Shown here piece after piece: positions 13,611-51,627 of a stretch of 64,000 nucleotides of DNA. This DNA comes from Ruminococcus sp. GTDB lineage: Bacteria > Bacillota > Clostridia > Oscillospirales > Ruminococcaceae. The notes under the pieces were generated by a model, which worked only from the letters and a program-made list of their open reading frames with translations, searched no databases and was not told the DNA's origin. The position numbers and the translations under genes were made by a program. The stretch is taken from NCBI GenBank assembly GCA_015066665.1, contig SVNX01000003.1, positions 39,074-103,073 of the forward strand. Direction: 5' to 3'. Position 1 is the stretch's first letter. Every line of letters starts with the position of its first letter.

Positions 13611-13618
13611 AGTGATAC

Positions 13619-14653: not shown

Positions 14654-14663
14654 CATAATGATC

Positions 14664-14941: not shown

Positions 14942-14944
14942 GTT

Positions 14945-17527: not shown

Positions 17528-17541
17528 AACGGCAGCCTCCT

Positions 17542-18357: not shown

Positions 18358-18358
18358 G

Positions 18359-18778: not shown

Positions 18779-18789
18779 ACTGTGCCTCC

Positions 18790-21105: not shown

Positions 21106-21175
21106 TGCTGTCATTCCTCTCAATCAATTTATTTCAATGAAACGGGCGGCAGAGTGCCGCCCGACGGGACCAGTC

Positions 21176-25502: not shown

Positions 25503-25531
25503 TTGACTTTTAGCTAAATTTGTACTATAAT
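25503..25531 (+). promoter_or_regulatory. Sigma-70 type promoter
   Basis: TTGACT, 17-nt spacer, TATAAT. Confidence 0.65.
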
Positions 25532-25623: not shown

Positions 25624-26307
25624 ATGAGAAATGCAAAGAAGATGTTTGCGGCTGCCGCAATGTGTGCAGCTGTTGCTTCCATGGGCTGCATGGCTCTGAC
25701 CTGCAGTGCCGCTGAGGTACCCGCAGCAGATGCATATGTGTACTACCGCAGCGTGGATGAGGCAATTCGTTTTGAGGGCGTCGGCAATGAGGTCAACACA
25801 CTGGAAGCGACTCCGGTTTCCGTTGCAGCTGACGGCACCTATACAGTAGAACTGACTGCTGACAGCCTTGGCGAGATCGCAGTGCTGAAGCTCTATGTGG
25901 CTTCTGCTGAGGATCTTGGCGCTGCCGAGGTAACAGTGAACACCGTAAAGATCAACGGTGAAGAGGTGACTCTGGCAGAGACACCCGCAGCAGCAAAGTC
26001 CGAAAATGATATCTATCTCGACATCTGGGATACAAATGGCAAGCAGCTGTTTGACCGTACCGCATATCAGGATGCCACAAGCATCAGCATTGATTTTACG
26101 GTTGTCAACTGGCCTGTCGCTGAGACAACAACTGAGGAAACAACGACAGCACCTGAAACAACCACAACGGCAGCAGCTACCACAACAGCTGCCGCAACCA
26201 CTGCAGCAACAGTTTCCAACGCTGCAACCGGTGATCATGGAATGGTTATAGGCGGTGTACTCGCAGCGGCTGCAGCATGTGCGCTGCTTGCGATGAAGAA
26301 GAGATAA
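25624..26307 (+). CDS. Secreted cell-surface protein with a Thr-rich stalk and a C-terminal membrane/sorting-like anchor
   Basis: Signal peptide (..CSAAEV), ETTTEETTTAPETTTTAAATTT linker and C-terminal NAATGD followed by a hydrophobic helix and KKR. Confidence 0.6.
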   Translation: MRNAKKMFAAAAMCAAVASMGCMALTCSAAEVPAADAYVYYRSVDEAIRFEGVGNEVNTLEATPVSVAADGTYTVELTADSLGEIAVLKLYVASAEDLGAAEVTVNTVKINGEEVTLAETPAAAKSENDIYLDIWDTNGKQLFDRTAYQDATSISIDFTVVNWPVAETTTEETTTAPETTTTAAATTTAAATTAATVSNAATGDHGMVIGGVLAAAAACALLAMKKR

Positions 26308-26397: not shown

Positions 26398-28152
26398 GTG
26401 AATATGCATCGATTCAAACGCCTGACGGCGGCTGTGCTGACGGCATCAGCACTTTTTCTGACTGCATGCGGCGCATTGCCGGCGGAGTACCCCGGCATTG
26501 TAGAGGAGCCTGAGGAGATTCTGATGGGCGAGAAGTTCCGTGTGAACTTCTTTTATCAGAACAACGAGAATACCTACTGCATCAGACAGAGCGGCAATGC
26601 CAACAAGTTCTTCAAGGCACTGCGTGATACTTATGCGGAGATGCACTACAGCGCACTCTCCAAGGACTATATCCTGGAGTACAACAATTCGGACGAGGCC
26701 TATCGGATCGCTGAGTTCAATCCGGCTGATTATGAGGGCACACCGCTTTGGGAAACCGCTCGTTCCTCCTACAGCGTCGAGGGTGATTTTGCTGACAATG
26801 AAGAGAGCTTCTATGTGATGGAAGGTAAGAACGGCGTCAGTATCATTCCGGATGAAAGCCGTACGGAAGGCGGCATTCTGTCCCTCTTCATGGATGAGGT
26901 GATCCGTGCTGATGTCCGGGGCTTCCGTGCTGCGGCAGAGGCCGAGGGTGAGACGGCGGATGCGCAGTCCGCCGCTCCGACAGCAGAGACGGCCGCACCG
27001 GCCGGCGATGCAGCGGAGGATTCCTTCTTCCAGAGCGAGGCCATCAACGTGATCTTCACGGATCTGAGCGAAAATGATATCACATACCTCGGCAAGCAGA
27101 TGCATGATTACTACACTGCCGACAATCGTTATGATGCCTGTGTCATGGCCATCAAGCTTGAGGTGGAAAAGAACAGCATGCTCTACTTCTCCGGCAAGGA
27201 GTCCGATAAGCTGACCGCCAAGCCCTCCGGCAATACCCGCTGGTATTACCTCGTGATGACCGGCCCCACAACGGATCTGGCCATCTTCGTGCAGAAGCTG
27301 ACACTGCAGCTCAAGGAAATCAATATTCCCGAGGGTATCGAGTACGGCGGCTATGAGCTGTCCGATCTGAATTTCACACCGGAAAACTTTGATCTGGAAA
27401 ACGATGTGGCCTTCCGGTCACTCGACGCTTCCGACGAGACCCTCACAGCGCTTGTCGAGGCAGAAGGCAAGGATGCGCTGTTTGAGAATGCCAATGTACG
27501 TCTTATGCCGGTTGAGGATAAGGCTTCTATTTTCCCCGTCGGACTTTATCGTGATGAAACGATTGAATTCCGCTATGATGCCTCCGAAAAGGCATTCGGT
27601 CTGAAGGGCTATCAGGGCGCTTCCACAAAGGACTGGGCACTGAATATCGACCTGCTCAAGGAGATCGAGAGTGCGGATGTCATTGCCGAATCCACTGATC
27701 TTGGCTATGTGTTCGGTGATCCCGTCATCTATTATCCCGAAAAGGGCAAGTGGGTGGAGATGGATCCCAACCATCAGGAACGCTTCTTCAAGAAGGTGGC
27801 CATTGATGAAGAGGATGGCAGACACCTGACCATCATTTCGGATAACGCCGACGAGTGCGGCATCCATACACTGTATATCACCGTACCCGTGCTGCAGCGT
27901 GCGACCGTCAGTCAGGTGGTCAGCGGCGATGCTGAAGCGGACACCGCATGGATTCTCAATGACTGCACCATCAAGGGCACCGACCCCAAGATGGAGGTCG
28001 TGCAGACCAATTTCTTCGATAAGTTCTACATCAATCTGATGGACATGCAGATCGAAGGGGCAAGAGATGAGAATAACAATGTGTATGAGGAGTACCGTGA
28101 TGTCTATGCACAGGTCGACGAGGTGAAGATCGTCATCGAAAACATTCACTGA
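26398..28152 (+). CDS. Hypothetical lipoprotein
   Basis: Lipobox ALFLTAC|G. GTG start after an AGGAGG RBS, with an alternative ATG at 26404. No recognised domain. Confidence 0.6.
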   Translation: MNMHRFKRLTAAVLTASALFLTACGALPAEYPGIVEEPEEILMGEKFRVNFFYQNNENTYCIRQSGNANKFFKALRDTYAEMHYSALSKDYILEYNNSDEAYRIAEFNPADYEGTPLWETARSSYSVEGDFADNEESFYVMEGKNGVSIIPDESRTEGGILSLFMDEVIRADVRGFRAAAEAEGETADAQSAAPTAETAAPAGDAAEDSFFQSEAINVIFTDLSENDITYLGKQMHDYYTADNRYDACVMAIKLEVEKNSMLYFSGKESDKLTAKPSGNTRWYYLVMTGPTTDLAIFVQKLTLQLKEINIPEGIEYGGYELSDLNFTPENFDLENDVAFRSLDASDETLTALVEAEGKDALFENANVRLMPVEDKASIFPVGLYRDETIEFRYDASEKAFGLKGYQGASTKDWALNIDLLKEIESADVIAESTDLGYVFGDPVIYYPEKGKWVEMDPNHQERFFKKVAIDEEDGRHLTIISDNADECGIHTLYITVPVLQRATVSQVVSGDAEADTAWILNDCTIKGTDPKMEVVQTNFFDKFYINLMDMQIEGARDENNNVYEEYRDVYAQVDEVKIVIENIH

Positions 28153-28195: not shown

Positions 28196-29581
28196 ATGAA
28201 ATTTGATTTGAAGAAAAATGTTTCGGTTCCGGCATGGGGGCTTCTGGTAGGCTTCTGTATTGTGATCCTCTGCCTTTCATTCTCGCTGTTCATGGGCGTG
28301 TACATGCTTACCCATAATCAGCGGGAGAGTGCCGTGCCGAGCGGCAATGTGACTGTGGCTACGGGTGACGGCATGCAGGACGATTCCCAGCAGCCCACCG
28401 GTGAAACCAATCCGCAGGGCGGACTGCTCGGTGTGATCCCCGGCGATGAGACCGACAGCAAGGCACCTGCCGCAGAGGGTACCGATGAGGTGCCCACCGA
28501 CAATACGCCCGTACCCGATGGCAGGGTGGAACAGCTTCTTGCTGAGATGAGCGTCGAGGATAAGGTTTACCAGATGTTCATCGTCACCCCCGAGGCACTC
28601 GTGAACAACGAGGTCAGCTGTGTGACGGTTTCGGGTGAGACCACAAAGAAATATATTGAACAGCGTCCCGTCGGCGGTGTCATCTATTTCACACAGAATC
28701 TGGAGGATACCCAGCAGACCACGGACATGATCTCCAAGCTTCAGGAATATGCCGGTGCCAGCAACGACGGCATCGGACTGTTCATCGCTGTCGATGAAGA
28801 AGGCGGCCGTGTGGCAAGAGCCGCCAGCAAGCTCGGCACCACAAAGCATCCCGCTATGAGCTTCTTCGGTGACGGCAACGATCCGGATGCACCGCAGGCT
28901 GTGTATGATGCAGGTGCGGATATTGCACAGGATATCCGGCAGTTCGGCTTCAATCTGGACTTTGCGCCGGTGGCCGATGTGAACATCGACCCGAATAATG
29001 AGCTGGGCGATCGTATCTTCAGCAGCGATCCGCAGCTTGTCTCCGACCTGAGCGCACAGTTCGTCAAGGGTCTGCAGGACAACGGCGTGAGCGCAACGCT
29101 CAAGCATTTCCCGGGTCTCGGTGCAGCCAATGCCAACACCCACAACAGTTCCTTCGTACGCATCAACCGTACCATTGAGGAGCTGCGTGCCGAAGAGTTC
29201 AAGGCCTTCAAGGGCGGCGTGGATGCCGGTTCGGATTTTGTCATGCTCGGTCATCAGATCGTAAGCGCCGCCGGCGATGAAACACCTTCCTCCATGTCCG
29301 CTGTTGTTGTCGGCGACTGGCTGAGAGGGGAGCTGGGCTATCAGGGCATTATCGTGACCGACGCACAGAATATGGGTGCCATCACACAGGTGTACACATC
29401 CGAGCAGGCCGCTGTGAAGGCCATTCAGGCGGGTGTGGATGTTGTGCTGATGCCTGCAGATTTTCAGAGTGCCTACAACGGCGTGCTCAGTGCTGTCAAG
29501 AACGGCACCATCCCGGAGGAGCGTCTTGATGAGAGCGTCCGCCGCATCCTGACCGTGAAAGAAAAGCATGGCTTAATATAG
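28196..29581 (+). CDS. Glycoside hydrolase family 3 (beta-N-acetylhexosaminidase/NagZ-like), membrane-anchored
   Basis: N-terminal TM, KHFPGLG motif and GIIVTDA (candidate nucleophile Asp). Confidence 0.8.
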   Translation: MKFDLKKNVSVPAWGLLVGFCIVILCLSFSLFMGVYMLTHNQRESAVPSGNVTVATGDGMQDDSQQPTGETNPQGGLLGVIPGDETDSKAPAAEGTDEVPTDNTPVPDGRVEQLLAEMSVEDKVYQMFIVTPEALVNNEVSCVTVSGETTKKYIEQRPVGGVIYFTQNLEDTQQTTDMISKLQEYAGASNDGIGLFIAVDEEGGRVARAASKLGTTKHPAMSFFGDGNDPDAPQAVYDAGADIAQDIRQFGFNLDFAPVADVNIDPNNELGDRIFSSDPQLVSDLSAQFVKGLQDNGVSATLKHFPGLGAANANTHNSSFVRINRTIEELRAEEFKAFKGGVDAGSDFVMLGHQIVSAAGDETPSSMSAVVVGDWLRGELGYQGIIVTDAQNMGAITQVYTSEQAAVKAIQAGVDVVLMPADFQSAYNGVLSAVKNGTIPEERLDESVRRILTVKEKHGLI

Positions 29582-30671: not shown

Positions 30672-30720
30672 TTTCCATCATCCCACCATAGAACCGGTCT
30701 TCGGACCGGTGACAACGATG

Positions 30721-30748
30721 TTCATTCCGTAAACGGAGTAACGATAAT
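30721..30748 (+). promoter_or_regulatory. Weak candidate promoter ahead of the 11-gene cluster
   Basis: TTCATT, 16-nt spacer, GATAAT. Preceded by the hairpin accggtc-ttcg-gaccggt at 30693..30710. Confidence 0.25.
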
Positions 30749-30760
30749 AAGAAAGGTTGC

Positions 30761-32539
30761 GTGATATCCATGAAAAGAATCGAATTCAAGGCGTACGGCG
30801 GTACCGGTACGCTGATCGGAAGGAGCTTTGTGACGCTCATGGCGCTCAATGCCTGCGACCTGGCCGGCAGCGAGCATCAGGACGATGAGTGCGTGATTTA
30901 TCAGCTCGACTACGACGATCAGAGACCCGTCGGCAACACCACAAACGATGCTACCTACTTTAAACATGTCATCAGCTGCTATAACCAGCTGCACAACCGC
31001 GGTCTGAAATTTATCGCACCCATCAGCATGAAGATTGCACCGTACACATTGAAAAATGTCAGAGCGCACGCATACGGTGCCAATGAGGATCTGTACAGCC
31101 TGGAATCCCTGTTCTGCAGCGGCAGAAACAAGCAGGAGATCCGTGAGCTGCTCTCCTCCGCCTTTACCACCGATCCGGAATCCACAACCGAAGAGCTGGA
31201 GCGTTCCAACCGTGACGGCTGCTATGGTGACCTTGCCGTCAACGGCTTCATCAGCAAGAGACTGCTCGTGCGCCGTTCGTTCCATAATGTGGGCATGTAC
31301 AGGGATCTGGCCGGCCGTCTGGATGGTGCACAGGTGTTCTATGCCGGCTCTACCGACGGCGGTACTGCCAATACCATGATCGATAAGGACATTGAGTCCC
31401 TGCTGGACTTTCTTGCAGCAACCGGTGTTGACACCGGACACAATCGTCCCTTCCGCCTGTACGGACTGAGAACCACCCCCTACAGCAAGTTTGAACTGAA
31501 CGGCAACGATGCCGATGTTGCCATCACAGCCCCGATCCTGCGTGATAAGTTCGAAATGTCCAAGGGCGTATTCATGAACATCCAGCGTCAGAATGACAAT
31601 CCGGACAGAGAAAGCTACTACTATCTGGATCCCAACCGCTCCTACTGGCTCGATGGTCTGTTCATCGGTGCAAGCAGCACGCTCGACCTCACCTCCGCCG
31701 AGGCCAAGAAGGATAATCAGTACCACCCGTCCCATCTGGTGGAATTTGCACTGGCACAGCAGGCCATGGATGCCATTGCCGGCCGTCTGCCCCAGCTGCC
31801 CGAGTCCACCCCCCATATCTATGGCTATAACGACAGCGCCGAGGACTTCATCACACTTGACGGTTTCTTCAAGGAGAGCCGTGTGAAGTATTCCTATGAG
31901 GTGCTCACCGACAATAAGCCGCCGGAGTCCACCATTGAACTTTCCAAGTATATCCGTGCCATTCTGCTGACACTGGTGACCATCCGCGGCCAGATGATTG
32001 CTGACTTTGCCAATTATAACGACTGCCCCGACTATGTGGACGATATTTTCCATAAGTGCCATGGTGATGAGCCGACCGTGTGCCCGCTCGTTGCCACAGA
32101 GCTGAAGAAGTTCCTCGATGAATCCAAGTTCATCGTTATGACCTTCATGAACATCATGGAGTATTCCAAGTTCGACCATGGTGCACAGATCGTCCGCTTT
32201 ATGGAAAATGCCATCCAGTATATCTATGATGTGGACAATATGGGCAGACCGATCACCCGTCCGGCAGAACGCACTCTCGCAGTGATCCAGAACGATGCCG
32301 GTACCGATTTTGAAGTGCGCTTTGAGGCATTCCCCGAATTCTGGGCACTCGATGAGATGTCCCGCATCCGCTTTGAACGCGGCGGCGTATTCGGCGGCGG
32401 CAAGCTGAAGAATGAGATGTTCTACCTGAATCATCAGGGTCAGAGTGCACAGGACAGCGCTTCCATCATCGCCAATAACATGATCAAGCGTACATTTGAA
32501 ATGTATCTGTCCGTACTGAATCCCGACGGCGGTTTCTAA
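30761..32539 (+). CDS. Cluster gene A: candidate divergent tubulin/FtsZ-superfamily (Tubulin_2-like) protein
   Basis: N-terminal FKAYGGTGTLIG (T1-like), RDGCYGDLAVNG near residue 155 and FYAGSTDGGTANTMID near residue 198 (T4-like GGT). Alternative ATG start at 30770. Confidence 0.4.
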   Translation: MISMKRIEFKAYGGTGTLIGRSFVTLMALNACDLAGSEHQDDECVIYQLDYDDQRPVGNTTNDATYFKHVISCYNQLHNRGLKFIAPISMKIAPYTLKNVRAHAYGANEDLYSLESLFCSGRNKQEIRELLSSAFTTDPESTTEELERSNRDGCYGDLAVNGFISKRLLVRRSFHNVGMYRDLAGRLDGAQVFYAGSTDGGTANTMIDKDIESLLDFLAATGVDTGHNRPFRLYGLRTTPYSKFELNGNDADVAITAPILRDKFEMSKGVFMNIQRQNDNPDRESYYYLDPNRSYWLDGLFIGASSTLDLTSAEAKKDNQYHPSHLVEFALAQQAMDAIAGRLPQLPESTPHIYGYNDSAEDFITLDGFFKESRVKYSYEVLTDNKPPESTIELSKYIRAILLTLVTIRGQMIADFANYNDCPDYVDDIFHKCHGDEPTVCPLVATELKKFLDESKFIVMTFMNIMEYSKFDHGAQIVRFMENAIQYIYDVDNMGRPITRPAERTLAVIQNDAGTDFEVRFEAFPEFWALDEMSRIRFERGGVFGGGKLKNEMFYLNHQGQSAQDSASIIANNMIKRTFEMYLSVLNPDGGF

Positions 32540-32561
32540 AAAACAGAGAAGGAGTAAAGCT

Positions 32562-35500
32562 ATGAGTTATACATTTCCAGGTCAGCAATTTGCGCAGCCC
32601 GGTACACAGCCGATTGACCTTGTACAGCTGCTGGGCAACCTCCCCGAATGGGGCAAGGCCCTGAAGCTCGGCGTGGCCGGTGCACCTACATACAGAGCGT
32701 TCAATACATCCGCTGCTTACTTTGAATTCATGAACAAGCAGAATCGGGATTTCAGCGACAGTGAAGCCAACGAGTTCATCCTCTCTCCCGACCTGCCCAA
32801 GTTCCAGGATCTCAGAAAATATATGATCATCCTGGCCAATGTCCTGCTGAAGGAATACTGCGATCTGAATCTGGCTGCCAGAAAGATCGACTACATGACC
32901 GTCTGCGATTATGACGGCCAGAACGATGACCTCAAGAAGCTCATCGGTGAATGGGCCAAGGAGATCGATTCCAGAAATAACCGGGATCTCACCGAAATCT
33001 ACATCAAGGTCGACGGCACTGCCTATCCGATTGCCTTCTACTCCGAGACCAAGATGCGTGTGTATCCCTTCAATACCATCAATCGTGTTGCCCTGCAGAA
33101 GCTTCTCGGCTGGGATGAGGAGAAGAAGGACTTCACAATGGAAGCCCTTGCCAAGGATTTCAATGCCCGTCCCACCTCCGACAGAGTGCTCTATGCCGCA
33201 CTCTATGACACCAATGCAGGCCTCACCACCATCAATGCCGCAAAGGCACTGGCACTCTGGCTGACCAGAAACAGAGCCGGCATCCGTATGGAAAACGGTG
33301 CACCCTATCCGATTCAGTGCGTGGAGGTTGTCATCGACGATCAGGTGCAGAGCCTCAATCTGCCCATCCCCGCCATGCCCTACGGCCTGAAGAAGCACAA
33401 TGCCTTCTCCGAGCAGCTGCTGATCATCAAGTCCAATTCCAATGCCAGAAATCATGAGTGCGGCCTGTGCACCATCCCCAACGCCAGCATTGGTATCAAG
33501 GATGCATCCGCACCGGAGCATGCCATCGTACCTCCGCTCAGTGATTATCTGATCGGTCTGATCCGTTCCCAGCAGGTGGAATTCAAGGGTGCTGAAGTGG
33601 CCAAGAACGGCGGCGATTATCAGGCAACCATCCATCTGTGCATCCAGGGTGCGGACTGCAGCTTCACCTGGGACTATGCGGCCGGGGATGTGAGAAAGTG
33701 TGACAACTTCCCGCTGGTATCCGTCCTCAAGTGCCCCAATGAAGCCACCATTGCCCGTCTCTACCGCTGCGACTATGAGCCGGTCGACAGAACACCTGCC
33801 TCCTATCTGGACGGCTATGAGATCAAGCTGGGTCTCGCACAGGGCCATGACAATAATTATGAGCTCCAGTTCAATGTGAATGTCACCGTGAACCAGGATG
33901 AGCTGTATTACTTCGGCGTGCGTTATCACAATTCCGATGAGGGCCGCACCTATTCCTGCGGTTACCTGTTCTATGATAGGGCGCACTCCCTCTACAATGC
34001 CACCAATGCATCCGATTCCACTTCTGTTCTGATCGATGACTCCAACAACATCGCACAGATCGCAGTACTCGATACGGACACCAACAAGGTGAGCGCCTAT
34101 AACGTATACAACGACCGCATCTTCTTCTTCAACCGCAACAGCCGCAATGACTTCGATGCAAGAAACGGCAAGATCTGGGGTGAACCCAATACCACCATCT
34201 TTGAAGTGGCCGGCGGCAGCATGTTTGCACTGGCACCCTTCAGCAGCGAGTTTGCTGACATGGTGGCCAATAAGCAGATCAGACTGACTCGTGCCGACCT
34301 GAAGCAGGACGGCCATAACTGGGAGTTCTTCGTTGAGTTTGAGTACAAACGCAGAAACATGAAGACCAAGACCAGAGTCTACAAGCCCGAGGAGCAGTAC
34401 ACCTCTCCCAATCCGCCCTTCCTGTATGCTGTGCAGACCGTGAATGCCCAGACTGCAAAGCCCGGCTATGATGTCATCATGGTGCAGAATATGCGTGTGG
34501 CAGGCGGCGTGTCCCAGAGCGGCAAGTCCAATGTCCTCGATTCCAACGACCTGCAGTTCCAGATCGGCAAGAAGAGCATTGTTTCCACACTCTTTGTGGA
34601 TCAGCAGGAGCTGGATCAGCACAACCCCAGAACCTATATCAAAATCTACGGCAGCCCCTCCGACGGCAAGCCCTATTATGGTCAGATCTCCCTGCCTCTG
34701 GCATCCTACAGCCTGCTTGACGGTTTCCACGCACTGAAGGATGATTCCACCGACTGTGCCGCCGTTCTGCTCGTGAACAATATGGGTGCCGGCCAGCCCA
34801 AGCAGATCATCACCGGCCGTGTATTCGATGACAATCTCTTCCTGATTGCAAGAGAATCCTCCCGCAGTGCCTACACAGAGTATAAGTCCTGGCGCAACAG
34901 CGGTCTGTTTGTCGATGTGGAAGACATGCCCATGGAGCATCGTGACGGTAAGGAATATGAGGCTATCTTCCCGTTCAGCCTGCAGATGCTGCGTAATCTG
35001 AACAGCGGCAATCTCCAGCTGTCCCAGGGCCACAGACCCGTTGTGAGATATGACCGTGAATCCAAGTGCTACCGTGTGTCCATCTTCATCGAAAAGGGCA
35101 ACGGTGAGCAGGATCCCTTCACCATGTCCTACCGTGAAAGCCAGATCGTCCGCTGTGACAATCTGCCCTTCATCGTGCCGCTGAAGGATAACGAGAACCA
35201 TATGCACATTGTCCGCTTCAACAACGAGGCGCAGCAGCATCTGCGTGACCACGCCGACGGTACCCGCATGATCATCGACTGCATGAACGGCGAGAAGGCT
35301 GTTCCTGTGGAAAAGGAGAAGATCGTGTCGCTCGACGGCAGTAATGTGATTCTGCGTGTGGCTGCCCCCAAGGAGAATGCACAGTGCGTATGCCATGTGC
35401 TGTATCAGGCAGCAGAGCCCTTCGGTGACGGCGTGTATTCCGTGCATTCCGATGCCACCGGTGCACAGCATGTATTCGATTACAATGCCAAGGAAAACCG

Positions 35501-38285
35501 TGTCAGAGAGATCACTGTCTTCACGGATTATATCATGTGGACAAGCCTCTTTGCTGACACCTTCGCAAACGGTACAGAGCCGGTTTCCGTTTCTGACAGA
35601 GGCCGCCGTGATTCCCGTATCTATTCCATCCCGATCACAATGGAATTCTCCCGCCTCATGGAGGAGAGAGGCCTGAAGATTGCGGATTACTCCCATGTCA
35701 AGTACCACACCGATGTGAACGATGTGGACAGCGGCATCACCGACAGCAATGCCGATCTCTATGTCACCATCAGTCTCACCGGCCTGAAGGGCGGATCGTC
35801 CACCGTTCAGAAGTGCTTCGATAAGAGCCACATCGTCGGCTTCGGCCGTTACCCGCTGCCGACACTGACGGTATTCCCGTTTGTGAATTTCGTGGCCAAC
35901 CATACTTATGGCGAAAAGCTGCGCGGCAAGAGCCTCTGGCAGCAGTATTCCTACGCCAAGTTCACAAAGGAAACCGAAACCGCAGAACGTGACAGCAATG
36001 CCCGTACCGAGGCACTCGGTGCCCGTGTTGAGTTCTGGATCAACGGCAAGAAGGTTGAGTTCCAGAAGAGAAGCACCAAGATCATGGACTCCATGGAGGT
36101 CAATGAGCAGACCCGTATGGAAGTTGCCAAGGTTTCCGGATGGGGTCACTACATCCATATGAAGTACGATGGATCCAATACAGTTGCTCCCACAAAGCCC
36201 GTGGACAGCCAGTGGAACGGCAAGGAGCTCGGCTGCATCATCATGAAGCCGGCGCCTACCAAGGAGGTCGATTCCACCCGCAATGCCACTGTCGGTGTGG
36301 ACTTCGGTACCAGAAATTCCATCGTGGCCATCTATCCCGACGGCGTGACAGCTGTGAGCTTCCCGTACCACGGTCATCAGGAGCTGCAGAAGATCGTCAT
36401 CCCCGGCATGGATGATGTCGCCTTCAAGGATTTCTCCAACCTGAGCTATATTCCGCACTTTGACGGCAGAGCCGATATGGGCGTGGGCTGCGGTAAGTTC
36501 GCTTCCACCGTTATGGCCTACTCCGTTGTTGAAGCTGCCAATGAAGTGCTCACTCCCTATGACCGTGGCTTCGTGCCCAATGTACAGGGCGACGTGCTCA
36601 AGAGAATCATGAACCGCATGACCCGTCCCGGTTCCATGGCCGACCTGCTCGGCTTCTACAGCGATCTGAAGATCTCCACAAGTGCAGATACTGCCGATCC
36701 GAATCTGATCCGCATCATGGACCGCAATGTGCGTCTGTTCATCAAGAGCGTTATGTTCCATACCGCACTCAACTGCTATCAGGCAGGCTGCGGCAAGATC
36801 AATGTCCGCTTCTCCGTACCGTCCGAGATGTTCGTCAAGAATCTCAAGCCCGTATGGCTCGAGGCACAGAAATATATCGATTCCTACTTCCCCGAGCAGG
36901 CACGAGGCAATATCACCGTGGGTGAGTATGCAACCGAGGCCAAGGCCCTGTTCAAGCATCTGAGCAGCAATATGAACGGCACACCGCCCAAGTATTCTGC
37001 CATCACCGACGGCGGTGACGGTACCTATGACTTCACCATCAACAAGCTCGTCGGCAACCAGCTGACCAATCCCAATGCCTTCTCCCTGCGTTATGCCGGT
37101 CAGCAGATCATGACCGATAGCGTGAATGCCTTCTATGACCATCTGGTACGCCGCAACGGCGGTCAGCGCAGTGAGGAAGTCAAGTCCGTCTTCAGAGGCC
37201 TCTGGAAGTCCGGTGACGGCTCCGAGGCTGTGCTGGAAACCCGTGAGCAGCTGATCACGCAGCTCTCCGATTACCGCAATATCCCCGGCGGCACCGACCG
37301 TGAACGTGAGAAGACCATGGTGCTGATGCTCGTTGAGCAGTTCGGCATCGACTGCCAGAAGCTGCGCAACCCCAATGCCCGCAACCTGATGCAGATCGTG
37401 ACCCCCGAATATACCAACTTCGTCAGAATGATCCAGTACAAGTTCCTGTTCCTCTTCAACGTACTGGGTGAACAGATCCGCAAGAATATCCGTCTGGAAG
37501 AGGACGATGTGACAAGCTTCAACATCTACCTCTACGGCGGTACCGCACAGGCACTGACCATTGCAGAACCGCTCTGTCAGGGCAATCTGGCCGTATACGG
37601 CAGCCCCGGTGCCGGCAACCTGCCCATGGTGGTCTTCATTGATGCAATGCTGGATCTGCCGAGAAATGTCAACGGCGAAAAGATCATCCTCAAGTTCATC
37701 CCCGCAAAGGACTCTGAGAAGCGTGAGATCGCAAGCGGTCTGATCGCAATGCAGAGAACCGAGCTGCATAACTTCAATGTGGATGGCGGCCAGAATGTGG
37801 AGATCCCGAGCTTTGCCGGTGCAGCCCCCGCTGCTCAGCAGCAGGAACCCGCAGAAGGCGGATTCGGTGATTTCTTCAGCGGATTCGGCAATATGGGCGG
37901 CATGGGCTTCGATATGAATCCCGCACCGCAGCCCGCAGCCCCCGGTATGGATACGGGCGCAGAGAGAAACGCCAGAAAGCCCAGAACGCTCGATGGCTTC
38001 ATCGACAGCCTCAAGGAAGTACTCTGCAACCGTACCGTAGAGCTGCCGCAGGGTGAGTATTCCATCGACAACTTCCTGCCCTTCATGGACGAGAACGGCC
38101 AGCCCATCTACCTGTCCCGCATTCTCGATGATCAGATTGTCAGAAATGCAATGCTCTCCGAGCTCACAACACTGTGGAATACCGTATGCACTGAGAACAG
38201 CGACATCGACGATCCCGATATGCTCTACCATATCTACACACTGAAGATGGTAGGCCTTGCCATTGAGGCATATCTCAGAAAGTAA
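32562..38285 (+). CDS. Cluster gene B: 1907-aa giant protein with a C-terminal actin/Hsp70-like (ASKHA) ATPase domain
   Basis: GAAGGAG RBS. Ordered motifs VGVDFGTRNSIVA (phosphate 1), RFSVPS, YATEAKA, ITDGGDGTYDFTI (phosphate 2) and IYLYGGTAQ (adenosine). The N-terminal ~1230 aa have no recognised domain. Confidence 0.7.
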   Translation: MSYTFPGQQFAQPGTQPIDLVQLLGNLPEWGKALKLGVAGAPTYRAFNTSAAYFEFMNKQNRDFSDSEANEFILSPDLPKFQDLRKYMIILANVLLKEYCDLNLAARKIDYMTVCDYDGQNDDLKKLIGEWAKEIDSRNNRDLTEIYIKVDGTAYPIAFYSETKMRVYPFNTINRVALQKLLGWDEEKKDFTMEALAKDFNARPTSDRVLYAALYDTNAGLTTINAAKALALWLTRNRAGIRMENGAPYPIQCVEVVIDDQVQSLNLPIPAMPYGLKKHNAFSEQLLIIKSNSNARNHECGLCTIPNASIGIKDASAPEHAIVPPLSDYLIGLIRSQQVEFKGAEVAKNGGDYQATIHLCIQGADCSFTWDYAAGDVRKCDNFPLVSVLKCPNEATIARLYRCDYEPVDRTPASYLDGYEIKLGLAQGHDNNYELQFNVNVTVNQDELYYFGVRYHNSDEGRTYSCGYLFYDRAHSLYNATNASDSTSVLIDDSNNIAQIAVLDTDTNKVSAYNVYNDRIFFFNRNSRNDFDARNGKIWGEPNTTIFEVAGGSMFALAPFSSEFADMVANKQIRLTRADLKQDGHNWEFFVEFEYKRRNMKTKTRVYKPEEQYTSPNPPFLYAVQTVNAQTAKPGYDVIMVQNMRVAGGVSQSGKSNVLDSNDLQFQIGKKSIVSTLFVDQQELDQHNPRTYIKIYGSPSDGKPYYGQISLPLASYSLLDGFHALKDDSTDCAAVLLVNNMGAGQPKQIITGRVFDDNLFLIARESSRSAYTEYKSWRNSGLFVDVEDMPMEHRDGKEYEAIFPFSLQMLRNLNSGNLQLSQGHRPVVRYDRESKCYRVSIFIEKGNGEQDPFTMSYRESQIVRCDNLPFIVPLKDNENHMHIVRFNNEAQQHLRDHADGTRMIIDCMNGEKAVPVEKEKIVSLDGSNVILRVAAPKENAQCVCHVLYQAAEPFGDGVYSVHSDATGAQHVFDYNAKENRVREITVFTDYIMWTSLFADTFANGTEPVSVSDRGRRDSRIYSIPITMEFSRLMEERGLKIADYSHVKYHTDVNDVDSGITDSNADLYVTISLTGLKGGSSTVQKCFDKSHIVGFGRYPLPTLTVFPFVNFVANHTYGEKLRGKSLWQQYSYAKFTKETETAERDSNARTEALGARVEFWINGKKVEFQKRSTKIMDSMEVNEQTRMEVAKVSGWGHYIHMKYDGSNTVAPTKPVDSQWNGKELGCIIMKPAPTKEVDSTRNATVGVDFGTRNSIVAIYPDGVTAVSFPYHGHQELQKIVIPGMDDVAFKDFSNLSYIPHFDGRADMGVGCGKFASTVMAYSVVEAANEVLTPYDRGFVPNVQGDVLKRIMNRMTRPGSMADLLGFYSDLKISTSADTADPNLIRIMDRNVRLFIKSVMFHTALNCYQAGCGKINVRFSVPSEMFVKNLKPVWLEAQKYIDSYFPEQARGNITVGEYATEAKALFKHLSSNMNGTPPKYSAITDGGDGTYDFTINKLVGNQLTNPNAFSLRYAGQQIMTDSVNAFYDHLVRRNGGQRSEEVKSVFRGLWKSGDGSEAVLETREQLITQLSDYRNIPGGTDREREKTMVLMLVEQFGIDCQKLRNPNARNLMQIVTPEYTNFVRMIQYKFLFLFNVLGEQIRKNIRLEEDDVTSFNIYLYGGTAQALTIAEPLCQGNLAVYGSPGAGNLPMVVFIDAMLDLPRNVNGEKIILKFIPAKDSEKREIASGLIAMQRTELHNFNVDGGQNVEIPSFAGAAPAAQQQEPAEGGFGDFFSGFGNMGGMGFDMNPAPQPAAPGMDTGAERNARKPRTLDGFIDSLKEVLCNRTVELPQGEYSIDNFLPFMDENGQPIYLSRILDDQIVRNAMLSELTTLWNTVCTENSDIDDPDMLYHIYTLKMVGLAIEAYLRK

Positions 38286-38420
38286 AATGCCGTCCCCGTC
38301 CGGCCGGATGTGTCCATTCCGGACGCATCCGCCGGTGCGGCGGTGTGAAAATCGCAGTCCCTCGCTGCTTCGCAAGGTGCGGACAGTGCAGGGATCCAGT
38401 ATCTGAAAAGTGGTGATAGA

Positions 38421-39836
38421 ATGAACGCAGAAAGCGTGACACTGAACATTGCCGGCGAAGAAATGCCCGGCGCCTGGGCGGCAGGGGCAACCTATGCCAT
38501 CACCAGAGCCAATACGCCGTTTCTGCTGATCGTGGCAGAACGTGAGGATGCATTTCTGGACGCCATTCTGTATCAGAAGGGCGGTGCCGGACTGCTGGCA
38601 CAGGTCAAAATCCCCATGCAGATGATGCAGTGCCTGACGGATAAGCTGACGGGTGCATTCATGCAGCAGATTCTTCTGCGGCAGAAGCATGCACCGACGC
38701 GTGTGAATGAAGTGCTGCGTGATTTTTCCGCACTCTTCCGCCGGTCTCCCGAGGCGCAGCAGCTGTTTCAGCAGCTGGCAGGCATTGTCACAGCCGATCC
38801 GAATCAGCTGACGTTTTCCGGCATTCAGCCGGTCTTCCGCAAGCTGGTGCAGACCTGCGAGCTTGAGCCCGTCATGTATCCCCAGATCCTTCGGAAAAGG
38901 GGCATCGAAAATACAATGATGCAGCTCTATGCGGCCTCTTTGACAGAATGGAATCAGCTGACAGCCCTGCTTCGTGATTTTCTGCGCAGGCAGGCCGTCT
39001 GGCTGAATGAACCGAATGCCGATCTGCAGATCCATTTCTGCGGCAGTATCCGTAAGCTGGCCGTACTGGCCGAGCCCTCTGCCGTGCACAAGTCCACGAT
39101 ACAGATGAATCAGAACAGCCGTGACATGCTCTATGGCATGACCATGGAAATGCTCCGTGTACCTGAAAAACAAACGCCGTGGCGGATGCAGATGGCTATT
39201 TATGCCGGAGATTACGAAAAAATGATGCTGGAAGGCTATCACAATTTCCAGGCGAGAACGGCCGGTGCGCAGAATGCGGAAACCCATCCGGCAAACGTCC
39301 GTGTTTTCCACGATACTGTGCTCTCGCTGCCGGCGGAGTTTGGCATCTATGCAGGCAGTGTACAGGGGAGAAAGCTTCCTGTGAACGGCAGCCTCGTGCA
39401 GACCTCACCGCTTGACGGCAGTCTTTTGATTGCTCCCTTTTCTGATGCATTTTCGACCCTGATTGCGCAGGGCAAGGTCACTGTACAGAACATGCAGTGG
39501 ACGGCCGAGGGCGACAATCTGCAGTTCACCGTGGAATTCACCCATGAGGGACGCAGCATCCGTCCGGCACCGCGTATCTATACACCACAGGATGTGTGCC
39601 GTGTAACGACACCCCCTGAACTGATTTTGTTCCGCACGCCGGGCACCTCCGGGATGCATGTGCGGATGGAGAATACCACCATGCAGGCTGCACTTTACGG
39701 CGGCATCCGGCGAGGAAAGGCTGTTCAGGCGCAGGCCGGCATGTATCGGTATTATTTTAAACTGTATCGGGATGATGCATTCCTTGGGCAGTTCGATTAT
39801 CTCCTGGCGAAAGGAGTGAGTGCAGGCAATGAATGA
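38421..39836 (+). CDS. Cluster gene C: hypothetical protein sharing a ~75-aa module with giant protein B
   Basis: [20 protein letters not shown]...[26 protein letters not shown] aligns with ALAPFSSEFADMVANKQIRL...WEFFVEFEYKRRNMKTKTRVYKPEEQ in B. Confidence 0.6.
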
Positions 39837-41544
39837 TGAGAATCAGATGGGTTTTAACCCGTGGGGCATGGATTTCGGTGACCTCGGCGAACCCGTGAAA
39901 AAGAAAACGTCCCCGCCGGCACCGCAGCCCAGCCCCGAACCGGAAGCAGAAGCCCTTCCCGAAATCCCGAATTTCTTCGGCGGCTTCGGCGATCTCGGCG
40001 AGCCTGTGAAGAAGGCCGAACCGAAACCGGAACCCAAGCCGGAACCCGAGCCAACGCCCGAACCGGAAGCAGAAGCCCTTCCCGAAATCCCGAATTTCTT
40101 CGGCGGCTTCGGCGATCTCGGCGAGCCTGTGAAGAAGGCCGAACCGAAACCGGAACCCAAGCCCGAGCCGAGCCCCGAACCGGAAGCAGAAGCCCTTCCC
40201 GAAATCCCGAATTTCTTCGGCGGCTTCGGCGATCTCGGGGAGCCTGTGAAGAAGGCCGAACCGAAACCGGAACCCAAGCCCGAACCCGAGCCGACGCCTG
40301 AACCGGAAGCAGAAGCTCTTCCCGAAATCCCGAATTTCTTCGGCGGCTTCGGCGATCTCGGGGAGCCTGTGAAGAAGGCCGAACCGAAACCGGAATCCAA
40401 GCCGGAACCCGAGCCGACGCCTGAACCGGAAGCAGAAGCCCTTCCCGAAATTCCGAATTTCTTCGGCGGTTTCGGCGATCTCGGCGAGCCTGTGAAGAAG
40501 GCCGAACCGAAACCGGAACCCAAGCCCGAACCCGAGCCGACGCCCGAACCGGAAGCAGAAGCCCTTCCCGAAATCCCGAATTTCTTCGGCGTCTTCGGCG
40601 ACCTCGGCGAGCCTGTGAAGAAGGCCGAACCGAAACCGGAACCCAAGCCGGAACCCGAGCCGACGCCTGAACCGGAAGCAGAAGCTCTTCCCGAAATTCC
40701 GAATTTCTTCGGCGGCTTCGGCGATCTCGGTGAGCCTGTGAAGAAGGCTGAACCGAACCCGGAACCCAAGCCTGAACCCGAACCGAGCCTCGAACCGGAA
40801 GCAGAAGCCCTTCCCGAAATCCCGAATTTCTTCGGCGGCTTCGGCGATCTCGGCGAGCCTGTGAAGAAGGCCGAACCGAAACCGGAACCCAAGCCCGAAC
40901 CCGAGCCGACGCCCGAACCGGAAGCTGCTGCTATGGATGAGTGCACAGGCACGGAGGATGTACAGGAAGAACCGGCTGTCGGCTTTGATACACCTTTTGC
41001 TGCAGAAACGGAGGAAGCCCCTGCATCTCCCGCCCTCCCGGATGCACCGGACGAGGCGGATCTGGCCTTGTTTGACGCAGCGGAGACGGAAGAACCCGTC
41101 GGGGAAGAAGCTTCAGTCTGGGATGATGCGGTCATGGAGCCGTGCTATGATTCCGATGAAATCACCGCAGCACTGCCGGACAAGGATCCCTACTGCCGAC
41201 TGACTGTGCCCGCCGTTTCGGAGGATGCCCTCTGGAAGGCAGAATGCCGCAGTGCCATGCCGGCCGACGGCGAAGCCATGCTCGAAAGCGTGCTGCAATG
41301 GATGCAGGGAAGTGAGAAGGTCTTCCATTATCCGAGAATCCCGCTGGGTGACCGCGGATGGAGTGTGGAGGAGATTCTGAAGCATCCGGCTGTCCGCAGC
41401 GAAATCACCCGCAGCGGTGCCAAGCTCTGGGAGGAAACCATCCGCCAGTCCGAGACGGGAACCGCACCCGACTGGATTCGTCTGGCATGGAACCGCAAAA
41501 TGATGCAGCATGCGGTGGACTACTTCATGATCTGTATGCGATAA
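39829..41544 (+). CDS. Cluster gene D: FG-motif / PEPK-spacer tandem-repeat protein with a globular C-terminal domain
   Basis: 9 [10 protein letters not shown] motifs, 8 of them preceded by [14 protein letters not shown] is 12 nt after an AAGGAG RBS and overlaps the end of gene C by 8 nt. Confidence 0.7.
39874..40926 (+). repeat. In-frame tandem repeat: 8 full copies of 123 bp (one is 117 bp) plus a partial first copy
   Basis: Copy starts measured at 39961, 40084, 40201, 40324, 40447, 40570, 40693 and 40816. Only scattered substitutions between copies. Confidence 0.95.
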
Positions 41545-41573
41545 AAATAAATAGGAATAGGAGGAGATTTGAT

Positions 41574-43145
41574 TTGGCAAAGTTGATGTATGAAAATGAA
41601 GTCGACGGCGACGGCTTTCCGGAGTGCAAAGATCAGACAAACACAATGCAGCTGTCGTTCAGCGAAGTCAGGGAACACAACTACATCTTTGATACTGTGC
41701 TTGTCGGAGACGGCACAATGATGAAATTCTGCTACAATGAGGAGCAGGATCAGCTCTATGCATTCGAAGTGAATCCCGAAACCGGCGAGGCAGCGGAGAA
41801 TGTGACCGTGCATGCGATCTTCGATCAGGAGCTTGAACTTGAAAAGGGCACCTATACCATCGAGCTGGAAGGCGATACCTTTGCGGTGACAAAGGAAGAG
41901 CAGTCCGTTCTTAAGGGCGGCAGCGTCAGTGCGCTTGTCAGCGGCAGGGATGCCAACAAGATGGTGCTGAAGAACAATGTCGAAGCCGGCAAGGAATATC
42001 TCGCTGAGAATCAGTCCGGTGACGCCGTCACCGATGCACCGGCTGCCGAAGTTCAGACCGATGCCCCTGCTGCGGAGACTCCGCAGGCAACTGAGGAAAC
42101 TTTTGCGACACTTTCAGTGGAGCAGCCGTCCACAGAAACCGCTGCAGCAGGCGATGAGGGCGGCGGCAGTCCTGTTCTTGTGATTCTGCTTATCGTGGCA
42201 GCTGTCGCCGCACTGCTGGCATGCGGTGCTGCGGCTGTGTTTGCTGTGATGTTCAAAAAAGCCAAGAGTGAAACGGATATGCTCAAAAAGAAGGTGCGTG
42301 CACTTCAGAATGAGAGCAGCAGCAAGACCATGCTGATTGATGAAGCCAAGGCAAGCAGACATCAGAGCGAAGGTGCCATCGAGACGCTTGAATCCGAAAA
42401 TAACGAGCTGAGAGCCATGAACCAGAAGCTGATGCAGAACGAAAAGGCATGGGAACAGAAGCTCAATGATATGCATGCCGATGCCACACAGAAGCTCGAG
42501 GAGAAGGACGCACAGCTTGCCAAGATGCGCAGCACTGCCGAGGCGTGGAAGGAATACGCCGAAAAATGGAAAAATTATGCCGATCAGCTGAAGCAGTATT
42601 CGGATCGTATGGAAGGCAATGTGCAGCAGCTCGTACAGAGACTGATCAATTACGAGCAGGTCAATGCCGAACTTCTGGCATCGCAGGCACCCGCTGCACC
42701 CGATGCACCGGAACAGACCGAGCAGACGGCCCCTGCTGCAGAACCCGAGTTCACACCGGAACCCGAGGAGACACTGGAGGACAGAGCACTGCGGATCTCT
42801 CTTGATCTCGATGAGGTCGACCGCTATCCGGAAGCCGTCTTCCTGAATGTGGCCAATATGATGACCGGTGAGGTGCGCCTGAGTGCCGCTTCCTCCTACA
42901 GAACGGCACCCATCGTGCTGATCGGCCGGTATCTGTACCTGAATCCCTATTTCTTTGTGGATCTGCCCAAGCGCAGAGAGTCGGTCAATAACCTCAGAAG
43001 TGTGGAGGCCATTTATGAGATTTCCGGACTGGGCGGCGGCAATCTGCCCTATGGACTGGATTACATCAGCCCGGCACAGGCCACCGATATTGACGGCAAG
43101 AGCTTCCGTCTTGACAGCAAGGGCCGCATGACCGTCAGTGCGTAG
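41574..43145 (+). CDS. Cluster gene E: single-pass membrane protein (N-terminal domain, TM, coiled coil, conserved C-terminal domain)
   Basis: TTG start 7 nt after a GGAGGAG RBS, with an alternative ATG at 41586. TM PVLVILLIVAAVAALLACGAAAVFAVMF followed by KK. Heptad-rich segment. C-terminal domain is paralogous to gene F. Confidence 0.65.
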   Translation: MAKLMYENEVDGDGFPECKDQTNTMQLSFSEVREHNYIFDTVLVGDGTMMKFCYNEEQDQLYAFEVNPETGEAAENVTVHAIFDQELELEKGTYTIELEGDTFAVTKEEQSVLKGGSVSALVSGRDANKMVLKNNVEAGKEYLAENQSGDAVTDAPAAEVQTDAPAAETPQATEETFATLSVEQPSTETAAAGDEGGGSPVLVILLIVAAVAALLACGAAAVFAVMFKKAKSETDMLKKKVRALQNESSSKTMLIDEAKASRHQSEGAIETLESENNELRAMNQKLMQNEKAWEQKLNDMHADATQKLEEKDAQLAKMRSTAEAWKEYAEKWKNYADQLKQYSDRMEGNVQQLVQRLINYEQVNAELLASQAPAAPDAPEQTEQTAPAAEPEFTPEPEETLEDRALRISLDLDEVDRYPEAVFLNVANMMTGEVRLSAASSYRTAPIVLIGRYLYLNPYFFVDLPKRRESVNNLRSVEAIYEISGLGGGNLPYGLDYISPAQATDIDGKSFRLDSKGRMTVSA

Positions 43146-43178
43146 AATCAAATAACATGATACGGAGAAGAGGATGCT

Positions 43179-44621: not shown

Positions 44622-44719
44622 TATCCCCCTGCGGTGCAGGGTACAAATCGTTACGGAAAATGGCCATGCTGCGTCGTGGCCATGCCGTAGCGCATTTTGC
44701 ATTTATGGAGTGCTGATAT

Positions 44720-47716: not shown

Positions 47717-47740
47717 CACGGAAGGAAAGGAGCCTTGGAA

Positions 47741-49453: not shown

Positions 49454-49475
49454 TCGTTGAAAGGAGCGAAGGAAT

Positions 49476-51626: not shown

Positions 51627-51627
51627 T

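Follow-up and report, generated by a model that had tools for sequence, protein, structure and literature searches.

In a 64,000-nucleotide (nt) window of the genome of a Ruminococcus sp. (contig SVNX01000003.1, assembly GCA_015066665.1), gene A encodes a protein that is very probably a highly diverged member of the tubulin/FtsZ superfamily, placed within a Tubulin_2-like clade. The product has 589 amino acids (aa) and matches, with 100% identity, P0001, which is annotated as a 'hypothetical protein' in a metagenome-assembled genome of the Oscillospiraceae. As judged from profile comparisons, its family is a rare gut/rumen-Clostridia offshoot of a widespread family of ~500-aa 'Tubulin_2 / FtsZ-like' proteins, to which A aligns as a homologue over residues 1-354. 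Gene A is one part of a recurring unit, hereafter the cassette, in which a tubulin-like protein, a giant Hsp70-like protein (gene B), small transmembrane (TM) proteins and a lipoprotein are encoded together across phyla.

The assignment of A runs through intermediate sequences. A word-indexed search of 5.8 billion protein clusters yielded 29 homologues, 24-62% identical to A, all from gut/rumen Clostridia and none with a Pfam domain; in a profile scan of genome contigs, the family was present in 6 of 185,579 species representatives. An exhaustive HMMER search of 1.84 billion representatives with the A-family profile matched only 44 proteins, and its outer matches (P0045-P0064; ~500-550 aa; E 1.8e-10 to 8e-4) carry Tubulin_2 and weaker Tubulin/FtsZ Pfam matches centred on a GGTG[AS] loop. 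The PF13809 (Tubulin_2) threshold is passed by the intermediates P0048, P0055 and P0045, with 41.7, 27.7 and 27.3 bits, respectively. Profiles were then compared between the core A family (A1), the ~500-550-aa intermediates (A3) and 30 diverse cross-phylum relatives (A6). Using hhalign, A1 aligned with A3 over 446 columns (Prob 99.9, E 3.7e-31), with all motifs in register, as follows (A first, intermediates second):

AYGGTG with IGGTG.
DGCYGDLAVNG with GFYGxPxIGA.
GSTDGGTANT with GSxFGGTGAS.
TPYS with LPYF.
YWLDGLF with FDxLYxxG.
QxHxSH with QxxxxH.

The larger family that contains the intermediates numbers at least 261 clusters and is scattered over phyla; among these ~500-aa proteins are those of Dyadobacter, Hymenobacter, Gloeobacter ('Tubulin-like protein'), Janthinobacterium and Eubacteriaceae ('tubulin-like domain-containing protein'). 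The alignment of A1 with A6 (Prob 98.8, E 6e-17) spans A residues 1-354. All 30 members of A6 match PF13809 (best 9e-13), with residues 5-53 of P0114 covering model positions 1-55, and 12 of the 30 also match PF00091 (best 4e-6, under the Pfam gathering score). Searched against the PDB, the A6 profile found CetZ/FtsZ chains only, the best being 3zid_A (E 0.016), aligned on T3 and S4-T4-H4. A preliminary description of this DNA had proposed that A is a divergent member of the superfamily, and the hhalign comparisons together with the PF13809/PF00091 matches of the relatives support that proposal by way of the intermediates.

The open reading frame (ORF) of A is uninterrupted and can also be read from a GTG at 30761. 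Homologues open with MKRIEF, which makes the ATG at 30770 the likely true start, and residue numbers count from this ATG unless the GTG start is stated. No signal peptide and no TM segment were predicted for the protein. Three glycine-rich motifs reported in the preliminary description are indeed present in the 30761-32539 translation: FKAYGGTGTLIG at residues 9-20 from the GTG start (nt 30785-30820), RDGCYGDLAVNG at residues 151-162 from the same start, and FYAGSTDGGTANTMID, which begins at residue 193 from the GTG start (nt 31337). They constitute the most conserved blocks of the 29-member family, in which AYGGTG and GSxDGGTANT are invariant. As a crude control, the window and 18 other loci were translated in six frames; among the 189 ORFs of >=300 aa, the motif pair 'GGTG in residues 1-30 + GGT[GA] at 120-260' occurred 13 times, all in A homologues. 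The gene and its assigned segments are:

30770..32539, + strand: gene A, 589 aa, cytoplasmic.
30791..30808, + strand: T1-type loop AYGGTG, residues 8-13, after strand S1 (residues 3-9); A8, Y9, G10, G11, T12 and G13 invariant in the 29 homologues.
30905..30919, + strand: T2-like position LDYDD, the end of strand S2 plus acidic residues; D47 and D49 invariant.
31205..31246, + strand: T3-like glycine loop SNRDGCYGDLAVNG, residues 146-159; N147, G150, L155 and N158 invariant.
31340..31375, + strand: strand S4 and T4 variant YAGSTDGGTANT, residues 191-202; Y191, G193, S194, D196, G197, G198, T199, A200, N201 and T202 invariant; aligned with GSxFGGTGAS of the relatives.
31472..31486, + strand: T5-like loop TTPYS with P237 and Y238, after strand S5.
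31643..31744, + strand: S6 and putative H7 region, comprising YWLDGLFIG (D295), LDLT, NQYHPSHLVE (Q317, H319, H322, E325) and helix 323-337.

Y231, R234, Y238 and T308 are invariant as well. The preliminary description had seen no recognisable motif in the C-terminal region, a view that the invariance of D295, T308, Q317, H319, H322 and E325 overturns. By the order of secondary-structure elements in the predicted model, LDYDD would be the T2-like position, and the A6 relatives have a counterpart acidic pair there, D39/D41, which is invariant. The T3-like loop aligns with GFYGxPxIGA / GFRGHPSIGA of the relatives, a segment that in turn aligns to CetZ2 (4b45_A), and the T4 segment is the part of the relatives that matches PF13809/PF00091 and the T4 of CetZ/FtsZ. 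TTPYS is presumably the T5-like loop, with P237/Y238 nearly invariant across alignment A2 and LPYF invariant in A6. The S6-H7 segment aligns with FDxxYxxG...Q.N.PH..E of A6, and helix 323-337 is putatively assigned as H7 from the model.

The T1 loop lies at residues 10-13, the T3-like loop ~137 residues on and T4 ~45 further, giving a T1-T4 distance of 187 residues. This agrees with the Tubulin_2-type relatives, in which T1 lies at 10-13, GFxGxPxIGA at 134-142 and GGTG at 181-184. Canonical spacing is ~20/70/105 in FtsZ and ~10/100/143 in tubulin, and A agrees with neither. The loop spacing that had been ascribed to tubulin/FtsZ proteins at large fits the Tubulin_2-type relatives, but not canonical FtsZ or tubulin.

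AlphaFold2, given the 29-sequence alignment, produced a confident model of A (predicted local distance difference test (pLDDT) 88.4, predicted TM-score (pTM) 0.92), in which the elements, by residue, are assigned as follows:

Strand 3-9, GGTG and helix 10-25: S1-T1-H1.
Strand 40-46 and D47/D49: S2-T2.
Helix 60-76 and strand 86-89: H2-S3.
A ~50-residue helical insert: T1-T4 insert.
N147...G150 loop and helix 155-167: T3-H3.
Strand 187-194, GGTANT and helix 198-217: S4-T4-H4.
Strand 228-235 and PY: S5-T5.
Helix 247-276: H5.
Strand 292-302 with D295: S6.
Q317/H319/H322 loop and helix 323-337: putative H7.
Small sheet and helical bundle: C-terminal region.

The order of elements fits the FtsZ/tubulin scheme, the predicted fold is Rossmann-like, and the T1 and T4 loops follow strands S1 and S4, their expected positions in the superfamily. 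When the whole model was compared with the PDB using Foldseek, 13 of the 50 matches listed had a probability of >=0.8, and all 13 are tubulin or FtsZ (0.80-0.99). FtsZ matches reach a probability of 0.98 with a root mean square deviation (r.m.s.d.) of ~9 Å over 300-346 columns, most tubulin/FtsZ matches having an r.m.s.d. of 8-11 Å, whereas dehydrogenase matches have probabilities of 0.25-0.75 and r.m.s.d. values of 12-15 Å. The top BFVD matches include models of phage tubulin and PhuZ.

Several observations weigh against the assignment. Neither A nor the core members of its family matched any Pfam model, PF00091 and PF13809 included, at E<=1; A lies below the PF13809 gathering threshold (27 bits) with no match at all; and neither the sequence of A nor the 29-sequence profile retrieved anything relevant from NCBIfam, PADLOC or the PDB sequences. 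Because direct searches of A find nothing, the superfamily link rests on the intermediates. The preliminary description had named the lack of a tubulin-superfamily profile match, together with a predicted fold other than a Rossmann-like tubulin GTPase domain, as grounds for abandoning its proposal, and the first half of this is what the search of A alone against PF00091 and PF13809 returned. Compared with a single E. coli FtsZ sequence, hhalign gave ~1% probability and S4-T4-H4 as the sole local alignment, a one-sequence template being too weak for such a comparison. The T4 of A deviates from GGGTG[ST]G at three positions. On the structural side, the lowest Foldseek E-value against the PDB and BFVD is 7e-3, values of ~1e-2 are typical, TM-scores are 0.2-0.35, and short-chain dehydrogenases (SDRs) interleave with tubulin/FtsZ when ranked by E-value. 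The expectation of a tubulin-type fold was thus answered by a confident model with tubulin/FtsZ best by Foldseek probability, but with weak E-values. The model is consistent with a tubulin fold but constitutes weak evidence for it, and the case rests mainly on the chain of profiles.

Ranking by E-value is also what could recommend a different reading, that A is an ordinary Rossmann dinucleotide-binding enzyme (SDR-/ThiF-like) in which GGTG serves as an NAD(P)/FAD loop and the likeness to tubulin is coincidental: SDRs have the lowest Foldseek E-values (7e-3), and the Dyadobacter relative has a weak ThiF-family match on its first 47 residues (E 1.6e-3). We consider this extremely improbable, as the SDR matches are lower in probability and higher in r.m.s.d. 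than the tubulin/FtsZ matches, the relatives match PF13809 and PF00091 and no dehydrogenase family, and the PDB profile search found CetZ/FtsZ only. To our knowledge, SDRs do not carry a further glycine loop of T4 type ~185 residues beyond their first.

Within the tubulin/FtsZ assignment, the T4 loop bears most directly on function. Against the superfamily signature [SAG]GGTG[SAT]G, in A it reads GSTDGGTANT, with GGT retained and the G-[ST]-G after it replaced by A-N-T, all invariant, unlike the GGTGAS of the ~500-aa relatives. The preliminary description had called this loop degenerate; it does differ from GGGTG(S/T)G, but its invariance across the A family indicates a constrained variant, not decay. 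No T7 motif (NxDxxD/E) is conserved after the putative H7 across A1, A3 and A6, and a YxYND at residues 351-355 of the core subfamily is not kept in distant members. With T4 altered and no T7 found, a loss of GTPase activity, even of nucleotide binding, is possible. In the fullest version of this idea, A would be a tubulin-fold pseudo-GTPase that does not hydrolyse and perhaps does not bind GTP, serving as a structural adaptor for B and the membrane parts; the non-canonical T4 beside relatives that keep GGTGAS would fit it, as would the absence of a conserved acidic T7 motif across all three alignments, and T6-H7 likewise went unfound in the FtsZ-like family FtsZl1 (PMC2875224). We nevertheless judge it unlikely, since T1 and T4 hold 16 invariant residues at 24-62% overall identity and the G-G-T part of T4 is intact. 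Conservation that peaks in the loop residues is what a functional ligand site would show, as opposed to a relaxed one. Within T4, it is G-G-T that contacts the phosphates. With the loops and the T2, T5, S6 and H7 positions so strictly constrained, A most likely still binds nucleotide, probably GTP. As no T7 loop is recognisable in the clade, the canonical head-to-tail contact between filament subunits is probably not the route by which A would hydrolyse GTP.

Immediately downstream of A lies its giant neighbour:

32562..38285, + strand: gene B, 1907 aa, starting 22 nt past the A stop.

The A-B gap is 9-66 nt at other loci. B consists of a ~1200-residue N-terminal part, an Hsp70-like nucleotide-binding domain (NBD) at ~residues 1240-1700, a Gly/Phe-rich linker and a helical tail. 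Its phosphate-1 (consensus DxGxxN/S), phosphate-2 (DxGGGTxD) and adenosine (GG) motifs, which define the two-lobed Hsp70/actin (ASKHA) fold, are VDFGTRNSI (36291-36323), ITDGGDGTYD (37002-37031) and YGGT (37527-37550); they lie at residues 1244-1663 and are invariant in four orthologues. B orthologues carry the canonical DFGTTN / DIGGGTSD, and the Dyadobacter orthologue has FtsA/MreB/EutJ matches. An AlphaFold2 model of the C-terminal 707 aa, only moderate in quality (pLDDT 62), gave 254 Foldseek matches at E<=1e-3 (down to 3e-6), the top 50 of which are all Hsp70 NBDs. Nothing was found for B in Pfam, searched in pieces, or among PDB sequences, searched with the N-terminal 1200 aa included. 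On this model and these motifs, the C-terminal part of B has a predicted Hsp70-like (actin-fold) ATPase domain. A second, 1120-aa paralogue of the C-terminal half of B (P0068) is encoded at locus L001; the L001 1120-aa gene after B was considered as the counterpart of 38421-41544 of the window, but BLASTP found them unrelated.

Upstream of A, the window holds other conserved genes of the cassette, and a glycosidase gene:

25624..26307, + strand: P1, 227-aa secreted protein with signal peptide, Thr-rich linker and C-terminal TM anchor; first conserved cassette gene.
26398..28152, + strand: P2, 584-aa lipoprotein with lipobox LTAC.
28196..29581, + strand: membrane-anchored GH3 glycosidase (PF00933, E 5e-81; TM at residues 17-35).
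29595-30173, + strand: M1, small polytopic protein with 4 TM segments and a basic N-terminus.
30189-30671, + strand: M2, small polytopic protein with 3 TM segments and a basic N-terminus.

A had been described as the first gene of the cluster, a position that in fact falls to P1: P1, P2, M1 and M2 lie upstream of A and are syntenic in every Oscillospiraceae locus, and the best promoter-like site (25503-25531, 11/12 matches) precedes P1. The order P1-P2-(GH3)-M1-M2-A-B-D471-FG-repeat-TM-coiled-coil is kept in Oscillospiraceae and Ruminococcus loci. P1 is conserved in seven Oscillospiraceae loci. P2 is detectable in L001, L002, L004, L006, L008 and L011-L016, and a search of it against PDB sequences found nothing. 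GH3 lies within the cassette only in most Oscillospiraceae loci (L001, L011, L012, L014, L015), with no match in the cassettes of L002, L004, L006, L008 and L016. At every locus examined, one or two 3-4-TM proteins of 130-200 aa are encoded ahead of the tubulin-like gene.

The order lipoprotein, small TM protein(s), tubulin-like protein and giant Hsp70-like protein is found in Oscillospiraceae, around P0025 and P0029, at L006 and in Dyadobacter and Gloeobacter, so that the same order recurs in Clostridia, Bacteroidota and Cyanobacteria. Around P0025 (source name: Butyrivibrio) and P0029 the cassette is compact, with eight genes: those for a secreted protein (~230-300 aa), a lipoprotein (~550 aa) and two 4-TM proteins, then A and a B of 1300-1400 aa, and finally those for two further TM proteins, one of ~600-680 aa and one small. 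The cassette that holds P0025 (L002, 6326-18310, within the region 4956-21641) is flanked by a phage-type integrase and by relaxase/MobC and a primase-like gene, and in L004 (region 1-6000) the cassette follows an integrase beside Eco57I-type methylase, NYN and AlkZ-like genes. The same core accompanies the ~500-aa relatives in L006 (a metagenome contig), Dyadobacter (L017, cassette at 8233-21313) and Gloeobacter (L018). There the tubulin-like gene is preceded by a single gene for a 3-4-TM protein and by one for a lipoprotein or signal-peptide protein, which in Dyadobacter and Gloeobacter occupies the P2 position, and is followed by a gene for a protein of 1090-1180 aa in which DFGT[TS]N / D[IV]GGGT[ST]D are canonical. 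Dyadobacter has an additional, separate DnaK-like Hsp70. No convincing Walker A/P-loop was seen in cassette proteins, the few GxxxxGK[ST] strings being isolated matches, and no cassette protein matched vWA, OmpA or GTPase families.

The closest known proteins are those of the ~470-540-aa Tubulin_2 (PF13809) family, which resemble A in the homology of the whole N-terminal domain, in motif order and spacing, and in a neighbourhood of lipoprotein, 3-4-TM, tubulin-like and giant Hsp70-like genes. Unlike them, A falls outside the Pfam model, carries GGTANT in place of GGTGAS, is 50-100 residues longer and belongs to a family seen only in gut/rumen Clostridia, and its cassette has two small TM genes instead of one and a B enlarged to 1300-1900 aa. 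With FtsZ, CetZ, TubZ and PhuZ, A has in common a predicted nucleotide-binding domain of Rossmann-like type, with glycine loops in the T1 and T4 positions; it differs from them in its ~10% identity, a ~100-residue T1-T4 insert, a T7 loop that was not found, a C-terminal region without FtsZ_C or Tubulin_C match and the lack of a TubR- or centromere-type partner.

Tubulin_2 corresponds to the 'FtsZ-like' proteins of Makarova & Koonin (PMC2875224; PMC9871819). Among these, FtsZl1 proteins are ~1000 aa long and contain a long central coiled coil and, at the C-terminus, a helical domain; they are encoded in operons with vWA, P-loop GTPase and OmpA-like genes, often also with Ser/Thr kinases; T6-H7 could not be identified, and a membrane-remodelling role was proposed (PMC2875224). 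A is similar in its divergent FtsZ-like N-terminal domain, its T1-T4 inserts, the lack of a confident T6-H7-T7 and its membrane-associated multi-gene operon, but it has 589 aa, no long coiled coil in the model (the longest helix has 30 residues) and no vWA or Walker A protein beside it. Size, coiled-coil and neighbour criteria exclude A as an FtsZl1, and in the absence of any convincing P-loop, vWA or PADLOC match the cassette is distinct from FtsZl1/vWA operons. FtsZl2 (the PFL_1302 family) is proteobacterial, has T6/H7/T7 and lacks conserved gene neighbours (PMC2875224). In both FtsZl2 and A, the FtsZ-like N-terminal domain leads into ~300 aa with mixed alpha/beta structure and no coiled coil. 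Going by the published description of FtsZl2 and not the PFL_1302 sequence, A differs in that its clade occurs in Clostridia, Bacteroidota and Cyanobacteria, keeps a conserved set of gene neighbours and shows no recognisable T7. The DO-GTPase/GAP1-N2 conflict systems are defined by paired TRAFAC GTPases (one or two in the operon) plus a GAP1 protein, and their tubulin and HSP70 themes do not overlap, the tubulins having coiled coils and vWA partners (Kaur et al. 2020; PMC7159879). These systems are comparable in that tubulin- and Hsp70-superfamily proteins were proposed as NTP-dependent assembling parts near the membrane, in Firmicutes (PMC7159879). The cassette is distinct from them too: no P-loop GTPase was found in it, and the tubulin-like protein is in every case accompanied by the Hsp70-like one. 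We found no description of such a tubulin-like plus Hsp70-like cassette in the literature, subscription-only papers lying outside the search.

In a plausible model, A may be either a switch that depends on nucleotide or a scaffold that forms oligomers, and would work with the adjacent B and its Hsp70-like ATPase domain, a partnership suggested by their genomic coupling. A and B would dock on a membrane module of 3-4-TM and TM coiled-coil proteins tied to the extracytoplasmic lipoprotein, to which Oscillospiraceae would add a GH3 glycosidase, possibly acting on the cell wall, the whole amounting to an envelope-spanning machine with two nucleoside triphosphatases (NTPases). As to its purpose, we tentatively favour a horizontally mobile, membrane-acting conflict or exclusion system over a housekeeping cytoskeleton, because of the mobile-element and restriction-modification context, the rare and patchy spread, the variable accessory genes and a faint SLATT-like signal. 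The latter comes from the 4-TM protein before the Dyadobacter tubulin-like gene (L017, 9533-9991), with matches to SLATT_1 (E 0.018) and the PADLOC '4TM effector' (E 0.044) that fit a membrane-effector role but are too weak to rely on. Points to the contrary are that PADLOC found no cassette protein above noise and left the Dyadobacter cassette unrecognised, and that the Oscillospiraceae cassette lies among envelope genes (GH3, GH25, MBOAT/DHHW), which fits envelope biogenesis equally well.

Such a setting would suit a housekeeping envelope or morphogenesis machine of these Clostridia, coupling both NTPases to wall hydrolases, surface-polymer acylation and Ser/Thr kinases in the manner of the membrane remodelling proposed for FtsZl1. 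The lipoprotein, GH3 in the cassette, GH25 close by at L001 and L008, and MBOAT+DHHW and three kinases downstream can all be read in this way, as can a gene order that is stable at all Oscillospiraceae loci, and FtsZl1 with its kinase neighbours offers a precedent (PMC2875224). Against this, its occurrence is very rare and patchy (6 species representatives), the P0025 and P0029 versions are cargo of integrase/relaxase elements without any envelope enzymes, and the conserved core contains no wall enzyme; we rate a housekeeping role slightly below the favoured one.

The tubulin-like, giant Hsp70-like, 3-4-TM and lipoprotein components might form an undescribed four-part, envelope-spanning machine, spread horizontally over Clostridia, Bacteroidota, Cyanobacteria and Proteobacteria, a possibility that we put forward with reserve. 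If true, relatives of two eukaryotic cytoskeletal/chaperone NTPase folds would be paired in one complex, the cassette could be an immune or exclusion system of a new class that acts on membranes, or else a cytomotive system of a new kind, and within it the A family would be the branch that has diverged furthest, its T4 nucleotide loop re-tooled. A is an unannotated variant in a known but uncharacterised branch of the tubulin superfamily, and the wider value lies in the conserved cassette. Tubulin_2/'FtsZ-like' proteins have been known from sequence since 2010; the literature examined contained no experimental work on them, and we know of none. One Tubulin_2 branch has drifted out of reach of the current Pfam model, which argues for a new family model for these 'hypothetical proteins' of rumen/gut Clostridia, and this branch and its ~500-aa relatives are locked in one gene order with Hsp70-like, membrane and lipoprotein genes in at least three phyla. 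The eight-gene Butyrivibrio-type cassette on a mobilisable element is a concrete unit for asking what a non-FtsZ bacterial tubulin does, whether a tubulin fold is able to function without a T7 loop, and whether NTPases of tubulin-like and Hsp70-like type cooperate at the membrane.

Downstream of B, the window continues on the same strand with accessory genes and, after them, kinase-like genes:

38421..46258, + strand: accessory genes for D471, FG-repeat, TM coiled-coil and coiled-coil proteins.
38421-39836, + strand: D471, with a domain in common with B residues 555-717.
39820-41544, + strand: FG-repeat gene; the array at 39934-40925 has eight near-identical 123-nt (41-aa) repeats with a Pro/Glu/Lys-rich spacer.
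41358-43145 and 43179-44621, + strand: TM coiled-coil genes, each with a single TM segment and a common C-terminal domain with NPY[FY][FY].
44720-46258, + strand: coiled-coil gene.
46289..51626, + strand: three paralogous Ser/Thr-kinase-like genes with coiled coils (Pkinase, 1e-8 to 1e-10).

L008, L011 and L016 conserve D471, the C-terminal end of the FG-repeat protein and the first of the two TM coiled-coil proteins; D471 is additionally matched in L001, L012 and L014. The annotated ATG at 41358 lies 187 nt inside the preceding gene, so that the true start of this gene is probably further downstream. A Gly/Phe motif in the B linker, GGFGDFFSGFGNMGGMGF (37857-37910), resembles the motif of the FG-repeat protein, and the motif could be a multivalent docking peptide for one NTPase; the NCBIfam 'PorACj' match of the FG-repeat protein is probably compositional. 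The three kinase-like genes have a common N-terminus, MQDLFERVREYY, and a coiled coil that resembles the one in the 41358-43145 gene (AEAWKEYAEKWKNYADQLKQY vs AAQWRAYSEKYQENAKMWQNYANQLKQQ), and the last of them also encodes a TM segment and a C-type lectin domain (Lectin_C 2e-7); the loci compared end before the position of these genes. Further on, a DUF5050 surface protein (51553-52749) is followed, on the strand of the cluster, by an MBOAT acyltransferase and a DHHW protein (53585-56150), which we take to resemble a surface-polymer O-acylation pair.

In the 98-nt gap between M2 and A, a hairpin with a perfect 7-bp stem (ACCGGTC-TTCG-GACCGGT, 30694-30711) has no T-run after it and could be an RNA processing or stability element within the operon. 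Near-full-length antisense ORFs in the same register, up to 2275 aa, shadow almost every + strand gene of the window. TTA, CTA and TCA are absent from the codons of A and B, and their antisense frames therefore meet no stop; the + strand is the coding one for A, these shadow ORFs reflect codon bias, not overlapping genes, and those at 30722-32434 (-) and 32484-39311 (-) were rejected as genes on this ground. Over the last 8 kb (56000-64000), G+C falls from ~55% to 36-47% and genes turn to the - strand, which may mark the boundary of a differently derived region.

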